From a virus (Duplodnaviria > Heunggongvirae > Uroviricota > Caudoviricetes): DNA of 24,560 nt. Made by a program: the position numbers and the translations under genes. Below, one piece after another: positions 15,368 through 17,223 of the stretch. The DNA lies in IMG/VR virus record IMGVR_UViG_2563366883_000007. One strand, written 5' to 3'. How positions within the stretch are numbered: the stretch's first letter is position 1; every line of letters begins with the position of its first letter. A model generated the notes under the pieces. It saw only the letters and a list, made by a program, of their open reading frames with translations, was not told the DNA's origin and searched no databases.

Positions 15368-16594
15368 ATGCCGGTAACTATAACAAAAATCAGAACTGGA
15401 GAAGATGTTTTGTCAGCAGCCATTCACCGCATTGAATGGTTGTTTGAAACATTCTCTTCTGTATGTTTATCTTTTTCTGGCGGTAAAGATTCCACTGTAC
15501 TTTTCCATCTTGTAGCCGAAGTGGCCTACAGGAAGAAACGTCGTTTTTCTGTATTGTTCATTGACTGGGAAGCCCAGTATCAATGCACCATTGATCATAT
15601 ACAGAAGATGCGGATGATGTACCAAGATGTAACAGATACCTTTTACTGGGTTGCACTTCCCCTGACGACAGTAAATGGTGTCTCGCAGTTTCAGCCTGAG
15701 TGGATATGCTGGGAGCCCGGTGTAGAGTGGGTTCGACAGCCACCGGAAGATGCTATTACTGATATGGCGTATTTCCCCTTTTACCGCTACGCCATGACTT
15801 TTGAAGAATTTGTCCCAGCTTTTTCTTCCTGGTTCGCAAGTAACCAATGTAGCGTGGCAATACTGACTGGAGTCCGCGCGGATGAATCTCTTAACAGATT
15901 TATGGGACTGGTTTCCCAACGAAAACTGAGATATGCAGATGATAAACCCTGGACCACGGCGTCACCTGAAGGTTTTTACTACACCATGTATCCGCTGTAT
16001 GACTGGAAAACCAACGATATCTGGGTATATAACGCTAAAACCTGTGCAATCTACAATCCTCTGTATGATTTGATGTACCGTGCAGGCATTCCTCTACATA
16101 ATATGCGTGTCTGTGAGCCTTTTGGCCCGGAACAGCGTAAGGGACTATGGCTTTATCATGTTCTGGAGCCAGAAACTTGGGCACGGATGTGTGAACGAGT
16201 ATCTGGTGCTGCCAGTGGGGCTCTTTATGCCAATGAAAGCGGGGCCTATTTTGCCCTGCGTAAACGGATGTCAAAACCATCCCATCATACCTGGCGCAGC
16301 TATGCGTTCTTCCTGCTGGACGTAATGCCGGAAAGAACGGCTGAACACTACCGCAACAAGATAGCAGTCTACCTGCGCTGGTATCAGAACCGGGGATTCC
16401 CGGATGATATCCCGGATGAACAGGAAAATGATCTGGGCTGCCGGGATGTTCCCTCCTGGCGACGTATTTGTAAGACTCTCATAAAGAATGATTTCTGGTG
16501 CCGAACGCTCTCCTTCAGCCCCAACAAACCCCGGCACTATGAACGTTACCTGCAGCGTATGAATGAAAGGAGGAAGGAATGGGGAATTCTGTGA
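15368..16594 (+). CDS. PAPS-reductase/PP-loop ATP-pyrophosphatase-fold protein, IbrA/YbdN-like
   Basis: PP-loop motif SFSGGKDSTVLFHLV near the N-terminus; about 408 aa. Followed by a ParB-fold gene overlapping by 16 nt. The start codon has a weak Shine-Dalgarno, so the exact start is uncertain. Confidence 0.75.
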   Translation: MPVTITKIRTGEDVLSAAIHRIEWLFETFSSVCLSFSGGKDSTVLFHLVAEVAYRKKRRFSVLFIDWEAQYQCTIDHIQKMRMMYQDVTDTFYWVALPLTTVNGVSQFQPEWICWEPGVEWVRQPPEDAITDMAYFPFYRYAMTFEEFVPAFSSWFASNQCSVAILTGVRADESLNRFMGLVSQRKLRYADDKPWTTASPEGFYYTMYPLYDWKTNDIWVYNAKTCAIYNPLYDLMYRAGIPLHNMRVCEPFGPEQRKGLWLYHVLEPETWARMCERVSGAASGALYANESGAYFALRKRMSKPSHHTWRSYAFFLLDVMPERTAEHYRNKIAVYLRWYQNRGFPDDIPDEQENDLGCRDVPSWRRICKTLIKNDFWCRTLSFSPNKPRHYERYLQRMNERRKEWGIL

Positions 16595-17223
16595 CACCAG
16601 AGGTGGAGGTGCTGAGCAAGATGATTCGACAGTACTTCAGTCAGGAACAATCTGAAGAGAAAACCATACAGGCCCTGAACCATCTCCGCTGCGTACTCCA
16701 TGAGATCAGCCCCTTTGCTCAAGAACCAGTGGACTGTGTGCTGTGGGTAAAAGCGGATGAAATTGTCGCTAACGATTATAATCCCAATGTCATGGCCCCA
16801 AGCGAAAAAAAATTACTGAAACAATCTCTGGAAAAAGACGGTTTTACTCAACCAATTGTTGTTTCGGAAGAAACAAGCCATTACCTGGTGGTGGATGGTT
16901 TTCATAGGCAGTTACTAGGTAGAAGAACAGTTACTGGAAAACGCCTGAAAGGCTGGCTACCAGTAACCTGTATTAATCCAGACCGAAAGGGACAAACCTC
17001 ACGTATTGCCGCGACTATCCGACATAACAGAGCCAGGGGGAAACACCAGATAACCTCAATGTCTGATATTGTCAGAGATCTTTCACGTCTTGGCTGGACT
17101 GATGAACGTATCGGAACAGAACTGGGGATGGACCAGGATGAAGTTCTGAGGTTAAAGCAGATTAGCGGGCTAACGGAGTTATTTCAGCAGGCAGATTTCA
17201 GCCCTGCATGGACTGTTACATAA
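16579..17223 (+). CDS. ParB/sulfiredoxin-fold (ParB N-terminal-domain-like) protein with C-terminal helix-turn-helix, IbrB/YbdM-like
   Basis: DGFHRQ motif (the DGxHR signature of the ParB/Srx/DndB fold). C-terminal HTH-like segment (SMSDIVRDLSRLGWTDERIGTELGMDQDEV). AAGGAGGAAGGA Shine-Dalgarno; the start overlaps the upstream gene's end. Confidence 0.75.
   Translation: MGNSVTPEVEVLSKMIRQYFSQEQSEEKTIQALNHLRCVLHEISPFAQEPVDCVLWVKADEIVANDYNPNVMAPSEKKLLKQSLEKDGFTQPIVVSEETSHYLVVDGFHRQLLGRRTVTGKRLKGWLPVTCINPDRKGQTSRIAATIRHNRARGKHQITSMSDIVRDLSRLGWTDERIGTELGMDQDEVLRLKQISGLTELFQQADFSPAWTVT

Follow-up and report, generated by a model that had tools for sequence, protein, structure and literature searches.

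The IbrA/IbrB gene pair of a decaying Escherichia coli prophage: an obligate PP-loop and ParB-like protein pair that may act on DNA

The window analysed here is a stretch of 24,560 nucleotides (nt) of Escherichia coli DNA, filed as a Caudoviricetes virus in IMG/VR record IMGVR_UViG_2563366883_000007 and read as one strand from 5' to 3'. It contains part of a 933W-like prophage and, close to the prophage end, two overlapping genes, ibrA and ibrB, whose products are a PP-loop enzyme and a protein of the ParB/Srx fold, respectively (Table 1). By every testable criterion, the pair is a member of the IbrA/IbrB family and is an object already known. With regard to function, the tentative reading preferred here is that the pair forms the core of a DNA-directed module, in which IbrB would target DNA and IbrA would perform a modification of the adenylylation type that depends on adenosine triphosphate (ATP) and is independent of sulfur.

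IbrA is 99.8% and IbrB 100% identical to genes annotated as IbrA/IbrB in Escherichia phage PhiR5_2, which confirms the identity proposed in an earlier note on this DNA. PhiR5_2 is a 61.5-kb 933W-like lambdoid phage that carries the pair at its far right end, on the strand opposite to that of the late operon and with two antirepressor genes upstream. Its record labels the genes 'co-activator of prophage gene expression', and the names given by RefSeq are 'phosphoadenosine phosphosulfate reductase' for IbrA and 'IbrB-like domain-containing protein' for IbrB. Against the alleles of O157:H7, Nissle 1917 and plasmids, the amino acid identity is ~90% for IbrA and ~87% for IbrB. YbdN and YbdM of K-12 (b0602/b0601), the other relatives that the earlier note had named, share 56% and 60% amino acid identity with IbrA and IbrB, respectively. 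The pair is counted as a known family because of these identities to PhiR5_2, O157:H7/Nissle and YbdN/YbdM. The window allele is rare, as 19 of 20,395 E. coli records match it at 99% or more. An allele of 83–85% nucleotide identity is present in ~1,920 E. coli records, including the islands rich in insertion sequences (IS) of O157:H7, Nissle 1917 and APEC O1, and plasmids. The two-gene cassette as such occurs in about one third of complete E. coli genomes.

The O157-type allele, which we take to be ibrAB of E. coli ECOR-9, matches the window pair in its two-gene architecture, in its domain content and in the overlap of the genes, but it is located in an IS-flanked island, whereas the window copy is located on a prophage. 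In the O157:H7 island (locus L015, 3797–6477 and 8912–9181), genes for a 722-residue AAA-domain protein and a 171-residue hypothetical protein precede ibrAB, and a gene for a PerC-family regulator follows. YbdN/YbdM are likewise similar in architecture, gene order and overlap (28 nt). In contrast, they occupy a chromosomal core locus beside CitR/YbdO and belong to a distinct paralogous lineage.

The gene coordinates, the lengths of 408 and 214 residues, the 16-nt overlap and the SGGKDS and DGFHRQ motifs are all as first described from the sequence. The ratio of nonsynonymous to synonymous substitution rates (dN/dS) is 0.05–0.08 in both genes when compared with three divergent E. coli alleles. 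Because of this purifying selection, ibrA and ibrB are regarded as real genes, and both are intact despite the decayed prophage. Translational coupling of the two is likely in view of the overlap and a strong AGGAGG ribosome-binding site placed 5 nt before the ibrB ATG, whereas inspection of the spacer sequence upstream of the ibrA start revealed no evident Shine-Dalgarno sequence.

The association of the two genes was surveyed in 80 IMG/VR loci obtained with an IbrA profile, 78 of which have a callable IbrA, and in another 80 loci, taken from genomes of bacteria and archaea, 78 of which were counted. IbrB adjoins IbrA on the same strand in 141 of the 156 loci (67/78 viral and 74/78 genomic), and the ends of the two genes mostly overlap or abut, typically at −1 to −34 nt. 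Among the 15 exceptions, there are seven in which the contig ends at or soon after IbrA. Three of these seven, along with seven other viral exceptions, fall into two lineages with a C-terminally truncated IbrA (loci inspected), while the genomic locus L139 lacks IbrB and is accounted for by neither contig end nor truncation. In a phage collection, 224 records contain IbrA-like genes and 225 contain IbrB-like ones, the counts being equal in each genus listed. The pairing of IbrA and IbrB is obligate. The order is IbrA followed by IbrB in most lineages and is inverted in one aquatic phage group and in Flavobacterium phages. The two viral lineages without IbrB, which are related to each other, include L078, L080, L081, L087–L089 and L093; IbrA is truncated in the four loci that were inspected, and a serine recombinase is located near L081 and L089. 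These lineages are probable remnants of rearrangement with no distinct architecture.

The family is large and widely distributed. At E <= 1e-3, 1,810 clusters (50% identity) match IbrA, and the pair is found in phages, both temperate and lytic, of Proteobacteria, Bacteroidota, Firmicutes, Actinobacteria and Cyanobacteria. Some of these phages have no lysogeny genes in the fetched regions, and several of them are presumably strictly lytic.

The surroundings of the pair were examined by clustering 783 flanking open reading frames (ORFs) from 141 loci. The commonest extra neighbour is a compact SNF2-family ATPase of ~410 residues, which lies close upstream in 41 of the 141 loci; 37 of the 56 ORFs in its cluster are the first upstream gene. 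A cysteine-containing domain of ~140 residues occurs in half of the viral loci (40/80), either free-standing or on the C-terminus of IbrB, and has no Pfam or PHROG match. Its consensus is ...YDKWEDYKAGMY...SCEHNLTN.SMNRIAWLGQAA.C... (L035–L061 and others; L004 4567–4992; L006 7489–7944), and in Microcystis phage Mwe-JY13 it is wrongly annotated as 'ParB/sulfiredoxin'. A cupin resembling ectoine synthase (PF06339, 1.5e-33) forms the N-terminal part of a fusion with IbrB in phage Gaia (gp104, L006 6296–7195), and in five actinophage-type loci, including L084 and L092, it has an ORF of its own that lies between the genes for IbrA and IbrB. A second, different ParB-like paralogue also recurs near the pair. 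In mycobacteriophage Bernardo, Arthrobacter phage Laroye and Faecalibacterium phage Taranis, the pair opens the packaging operon just before the terminase, and a DNA methyltransferase gene adjoins it in Laroye and in Bacillus phage 031MP004. Gaia and a Microcystis phage carry it within replication or recombination modules, with YqaJ/RecT adjacent in the latter. The SNF2 ATPase, the ~140-residue domain, the cupin and the other accessories are all missing from the window and from every E. coli locus examined.

IbrA belongs to COG3969. Its N-terminal region (~residues 1–240) resembles phosphoadenosine phosphosulfate (PAPS) reductase, and the remainder (residues 241–408) is a basic DUF3440 region with a pI of 9.4. 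The matches to the Pfam families PAPS_reduct (PF01507, 1.5e-16) and DUF3440 (PF11922, 3.3e-33) both exceed the gathering score. Against the PDB, a 12-member family profile retrieves CysD (1.5e-9), FAD synthase (2e-9) and CysH (1.6e-7). The closest solved structures to the N-domain are those of CysD and FAD synthase, at ~20% identity over ~170 residues, while the basic DUF3440 region of ~170 residues is without a structural match. IbrA has the alpha/beta fold of PAPS reductases, so that the PP-loop assignment of the earlier note is borne out by the Pfam, PHROG and PDB profile searches, as is the ParB/Srx assignment of IbrB.

In alignments of IbrA relatives reaching down to 23% identity, the PP-loop residues F36, S37, G39, K40, D41 and S42 are invariant and G38 is nearly so. 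Other invariant residues are D66/E68, G168-R170-E173-S174-R177 (G-x-R-x-x-E-S-x-x-R), P209, D212-W213, D217, Y233 and R247. Judged by its motif, the PP-loop is of the canonical ATP-hydrolysing form. No cysteine column is conserved in the same alignments. Cys249, in the segment RVCEP that recalls the catalytic motif of CysH, is replaced by A or S in 6 of 10 aligned sequences, and the replacements fall in Gram-positive and actinophage members. As the family is without a conserved cysteine, both CysH-type reduction and the Fe-S sulfur chemistry of DndC are excluded. The generic reaction of the fold remains for IbrA, and by analogy it would transfer adenosine monophosphate (AMP) from ATP onto a substrate oxygen. 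CysD, the small subunit of ATP sulfurylase, and eukaryotic FAD synthase transfer AMP from ATP to an oxyanion in this way with no catalytic cysteine. In contrast to these enzymes, IbrA possesses the extra DUF3440 region and a ParB-like partner.

Ten unusually long IbrA relatives were scanned for fusions, and neither a ParB domain nor any other informative partner was found apart from one ABC_tran fragment. The C-terminal motif of IbrA (VPS(W/Y)xxIC..L.ND...) forms a separate ORF of ~90 residues at L096 3927–4208 and at five other loci. Because the motif at the end of DUF3440 sometimes has its own ORF, the last ~70 residues of the region appear to form a separable module, as the sequences suggest.

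The fold of IbrB is assigned from profiles because its predicted structure is poor (pLDDT 49.6). As a single sequence, it scores 18.9 bits against Pfam ParB_N, which is under the gathering cut-off of 26.3, and it matches the PHROG 2159 'ParB-like' family at 4.9e-91. A 12-sequence IbrB profile matches ParB, Noc and Spo0J in the PDB at 1e-7 to 1e-5, covering both the N-domain and the helix-turn-helix (HTH). Weaker matches (1.7e-4 to 4e-3) are to kinases of the ParB/Srx fold, namely SbnI and the free serine kinase SerK. In the profile alignments with solved structures, NDYNPN, DGFHR and HNRAR of IbrB occupy the places of PxxQPR, GERR and ENLQR of ParB; DGFHRQ corresponds to residues 106–111. The NPN, DGxHR and NRAxG motifs and the C-terminal HTH are kept in 12 aligned sequences, down to 32% identity. 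N150, R151, A152 and G154 are invariant among them, and R153 is changed to K in 3 of the 12.

IbrB is not a ParB CTPase of the partition type. The GERRxRA/ENLQR motifs are replaced by DGFHR/HNRAR, and the Noc model gives 22.7 against a cut-off of 315. Neither in the window nor in the related E. coli loci does a ParA-like gene adjoin the pair; no search for parS was made. The ParB domain of IbrB also matches PHROG 498, a 633-position 'DNA methyltransferase' family, at 7.9e-9, and this type of domain is thus also fused to DNA-modifying enzymes. The ParB-fused DNA methyltransferases of phages and the DpdA/DpdB pair resemble IbrA/IbrB in joining a ParB-like module to a DNA-modifying catalytic unit; the role of DpdB in 7-deazaguanine DNA modification has been described (PMC12839542). 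In contrast to DpdA and the methyltransferases, the partner in IbrA/IbrB is a PP-loop enzyme of the adenylylating type and not a transglycosylase or methyltransferase.

The mechanism proposed for the DNA-directed module is as follows. IbrB would bind DNA through its HTH and probably hold a nucleoside triphosphate (NTP) in a modified ParB/Srx pocket. It would then recruit IbrA to the DNA, the overlapping genes providing a fixed ratio of the two proteins. Successively, the PP-loop of IbrA would cleave ATP into AMP and pyrophosphate, and an oxygen on the DNA target, or associated with it, would be adenylylated. The AMP might then be kept on the target or displaced by a nucleophile. This chemistry would need no enzyme cysteine and no Fe-S cluster, and for that reason it would be neither sulfate reduction nor phosphorothioation of the DndC type. 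In lytic phages, the module may mark or process the phage's own DNA near the time of packaging. In E. coli prophages, islands and plasmids, the minimal two-gene form may act on resident DNA, and activation of the eib genes would be indirect, through an altered state of DNA or chromatin or through prophage derepression.

We infer four points of this mechanism, namely that the two proteins form a complex, that their substrate is DNA, that adenylylation takes place and that eib is linked to it. The complex is proposed because the gene pair is obligate and overlapping. DNA is proposed as the substrate because of the SNF2, methyltransferase and terminase neighbours, the PHROG 498 match and the presence of the pair in phages without lysogeny genes. 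The earlier note had suggested a compact module that modifies or senses nucleic acids, possibly in phage-host conflict. The first part is strengthened, while still conjectural, by the obligate pairing, by the SNF2, methyltransferase and terminase neighbours found in the neighbourhood survey and by the ParB domain fused to methyltransferases. On the other hand, the defence or anti-defence part finds no direct support in PADLOC 2.0, where IbrB has no match, IbrA has weak partial ones (BrxP 28 bits, DndC 20.6 bits) and no system is called. The label BrxP (BREX type 4) was rejected, as the 28-bit match pairs IbrA residues 17–96 with profile positions 116–197 of 779, and none of the BREX genes PglZ, BrxC and BrxL is near the pair.

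Several points weigh against the DNA-directed module. To our knowledge, eib activation is the sole phenotype on record for the family, and a regulatory role accounts for it equally well. The PAPS-reductase-fold enzymes of known substrate act on small molecules such as sulfate, flavin mononucleotide (FMN) and PAPS, with the exception of DndC. The E. coli form may work differently, since the SNF2 ATPase, the cupin and the other accessories are absent there. No donor of a nucleophile and no acceptor for IbrA can be identified. NTP binding in the ParB/Srx pocket of IbrB is predicted from motif alignment. Moreover, a search of the full-text literature found no biochemical study of the IbrA/IbrB family and no activity for any member, in agreement with the earlier note, and a paper of 2022 describes YbdM as 'completely uncharacterized' (PMC8764527).

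A bolder form of the idea, which is rather unlikely as it stands, is that IbrAB is an undescribed system for covalent DNA modification, or for adenylylation of DNA ends or adducts, that is independent of sulfur, dependent on ATP and present in phages of at least five phyla. Here, the loader of the ParB/Srx fold would bring the PP-loop enzyme to the DNA, and the SNF2 translocase, the EctC-like cupin and the ~140-residue domain would contribute either access or the group to be attached. In its minimal form, as carried by E. coli, the system might then be an epigenetic switch or an anti-restriction device on Stx-like prophages, islands and plasmids.

An alternative that is unlikely but to be taken seriously is a pair of transcription factors that leave the DNA chemically unchanged. 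IbrB would be a regulator like KorB or VirB that activates silenced genes such as eib by nucleotide-dependent loading and spreading, and IbrA would be only a cofactor, concerned with the production, removal or sensing of the nucleotide that IbrB binds. Such a role fits the one reported phenotype, as IbrA/IbrB of E. coli ECOR-9 are reported to activate the prophage eib genes (Sandt, Hopper and Hill, 2002, J Bacteriol 184:3640), and it fits the 'co-activator' annotation in PhiR5_2, the HTH and ParB-type motifs of IbrB and the PerC-family regulator adjoining the O157:H7 copy. In addition, the K-12 ybdN/ybdM operon is repressed by the LysR repressor CitR/YbdO and is also under H-NS (PMC9068703). 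However, it does not account for a fully conserved PP-loop enzyme as the obligate partner in 141 of 156 loci or for the recurrent SNF2 ATPase and methyltransferase neighbours. The role of a prophage co-activator also makes little sense in phages without lysogeny genes, which weighs toward the DNA module.

Less probable is that the pair works on small molecules or the nucleotide pool. IbrB would then act as a kinase or NTPase in the manner of Srx, SerK or SbnI, and IbrA would adenylylate the phosphate or carboxylate of a metabolite or nucleotide, giving a product that the phage would use against host defences or as a signal. The matches of the IbrB profile to SbnI and free serine kinase are consistent with this, as are the nearest IbrA structures, which belong to enzymes adenylylating small oxyanions, and the cupin that actinophages fuse to IbrB or encode between the two genes. 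In contrast, IbrB always has an HTH in the 12-sequence alignment, the neighbourhoods are dominated by SNF2 translocases, methyltransferases, terminases and recombinases, and no transporter or metabolic operon recurs in them.

Phosphorothioation of the Dnd type is very improbable. The earlier note had likened the pair to the sulfur-modification components DndC and DndB, and IbrA would accordingly be a DndC analogue that adds sulfur to the DNA backbone via the host IscS, with IbrB as a regulator like DndB. The likeness lies in the two folds, as both systems combine a PP-loop enzyme of the PAPS-reductase fold with a protein of the ParB superfamily and Dnd acts on DNA, and in the weak DndC and BrxP matches. 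The DGFHR of IbrB resembles the DGQHR motif of DndB. However, this resemblance is at the level of the motif, and IbrB matches no DndB or DGQHR model in NCBIfam or PADLOC. Modification by Dnd can proceed without the ParB-like protein, whereas the pairing of IbrA with IbrB is obligate. The analogy is not supported, and IbrA was rejected as a DndC: the defining feature of DndC is a 4Fe-4S centre held by three cysteines, together with a cysteine dyad (PMC10853773), whereas the IbrA family has no conserved cysteine, and IbrA scores 17.8 bits with the DndC model TIGR03183 against a cut-off of 290.4. Moreover, DndA, DndD, DndE, SspB and SspC are absent both from the window and from the neighbour clusters that recur in the 141 loci.

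It is hardly credible that IbrA is an auxiliary metabolic gene for a true PAPS reductase or sulfotransferase that raises host sulfur assimilation: the RefSeq name, the PHROG 2302 category 'moron, auxiliary metabolic gene' and the phage-genome and viromics papers that count IbrA as a sulfur auxiliary metabolic gene all say so, but the C-terminal catalytic cysteine of CysH (ECG(L/I)H-type) is not conserved, the PP-loop has the ATP-hydrolysing form, the scores with the CysH and CysD models of NCBIfam are 24–34 bits against cut-offs of 154–413 (24–33 against 154–254 for CysH, a label rejected for IbrA), and the obligate partner is a DNA-binding ParB-like protein and not thioredoxin or CysN. The probability left over from the DNA-directed module and these four alternatives is reserved for other explanations.

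Table 1. Features of the ibrA/ibrB region, in coordinates of the window
Feature	Position	Strand	Remarks
ibrA	15368..16594	+	408 amino acids; PP-loop ATP-pyrophosphatase-type enzyme; PAPS-reductase-like N-domain and DUF3440
ibrB	16579..17223	+	214 amino acids; ParB/Srx fold, C-terminal helix-turn-helix
Overlap of ibrA and ibrB, 16 nt	16579..16594	+	ibrA stop region over ibrB start
Shine-Dalgarno sequence AGGAGG of ibrB	16568..16573	+	within the ibrA 3' end; ATG 5 nt further
Intrinsic-terminator-like hairpin AAAGGAGC-TTCG-GCTCCTTT and T-run	15176..15195	+	stem of 8 bp, 4 G-C pairs
AT-rich spacer 5' of ibrA, ~170 nt	15196..15367	+	33% G+C; presumed promoter/regulatory region
Codons of PP-loop FSGGKDS	15473..15493	+	IbrA residues 36–42
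Codons of DGFHR	16894..16908	+	IbrB residues 106–110; aligns with ParB GERR position
Codons of HNRARG	17023..17040	+	IbrB residues 149–154; aligns with ParB/Noc ENLQR motif
IbrB helix-turn-helix region	17056..17163	+	~residues 160–195
IS256-family element	17256..18570		transposase 17290–18498, minus strand; imperfect terminal inverted repeats of 30 nt

The flanks of the pair agree with the earlier description of a phage moron between a terminator and an insertion sequence. As in a moron, the pair lies at the end of the prophage and is preceded by a terminator of its own and by the AT-rich spacer. The terminator-like hairpin is placed, by its sequence, to close the upstream antirepressor gene and to set the pair apart from ant transcription. 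A search of the spacer for a consensus sigma-70 promoter found none, and an Rfam scan of it gave no riboswitch or leader RNA element. The IS256-family element lies 32 nt past the ibrB stop with the target-site duplication GGGAATCG (window 17248–18578) and is not present at the same site in strain EC2 or in PhiR5_2. The pair had also been placed on the strand opposite to the phage-like genes. This holds for the structural and late genes (those of Panacea, the LPD38 polyvalent protein and the internal virion protein), to which it is antisense, but not for the antirepressor gene directly upstream, which is on the same strand.

The window contains an E. coli 933W-like prophage in ynfG, just past ynfF, and the same site is occupied in strain EC2; the pair is at the attR-proximal end. 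The right end of the prophage adjoins a truncated ynfG, a gene for a 4Fe-4S subunit, right after ynfF (window 13996–14108), and integration into ynfG is concluded from this junction. ynfE is whole in the window, whereas in EC2 it is interrupted by a separate integrase island. Relative to PhiR5_2, ~12.5 kb is deleted, with the junction at ~22541 within window 19310–24560. The deletion fuses the last 3.2 kb (1068 codons) of the gene for a 2793-residue LPD38/MuF polyvalent protein to phage coordinate 41741, which is inside the internal-virion-protein gene. The prophage is defective because this deletion removes the tail-fibre, lom and hok region.

Other observations concern the neighbouring genes. 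The antirepressor ORF (14536–15171, 211 residues) has an AntA N-domain and P22_AR_C; it stands in place of two ant genes that PhiR5_2 and EC2 carry separately, with ~475 bp between them lost, and apparently arose through recombination of the two ant copies. An Rfam match to sRNA-Xcc1 (E 1.4e-11; 69.1 bits, with a gathering score of 53) lies at 14407–14495 (+), in the interval that separates the antirepressor gene from the end of the prophage. A stand-alone gene for Panacea, a SocA-like antitoxin, is located at 18635–19159 (−), directly downstream of the polyvalent-protein gene and with no separate toxin ORF; its toxin partner might be a domain of the giant polyvalent protein.

The window copy is thus an ordinary allele on a decaying prophage, and the family to which it belongs is widespread, mis-annotated and experimentally tractable. 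The database label 'PAPS reductase' for IbrA is almost certainly wrong, because the family has no conserved cysteine and has an obligate DNA-binding partner. In E. coli the form is minimal, as it consists of two genes and has no accessory proteins, and PhiR5_2 has been isolated and grows on K-12, which offers a convenient experimental entry. If the pair modifies DNA, it would represent new chemistry in phage-host conflict and would explain the eib activation reportedly observed in 2002.

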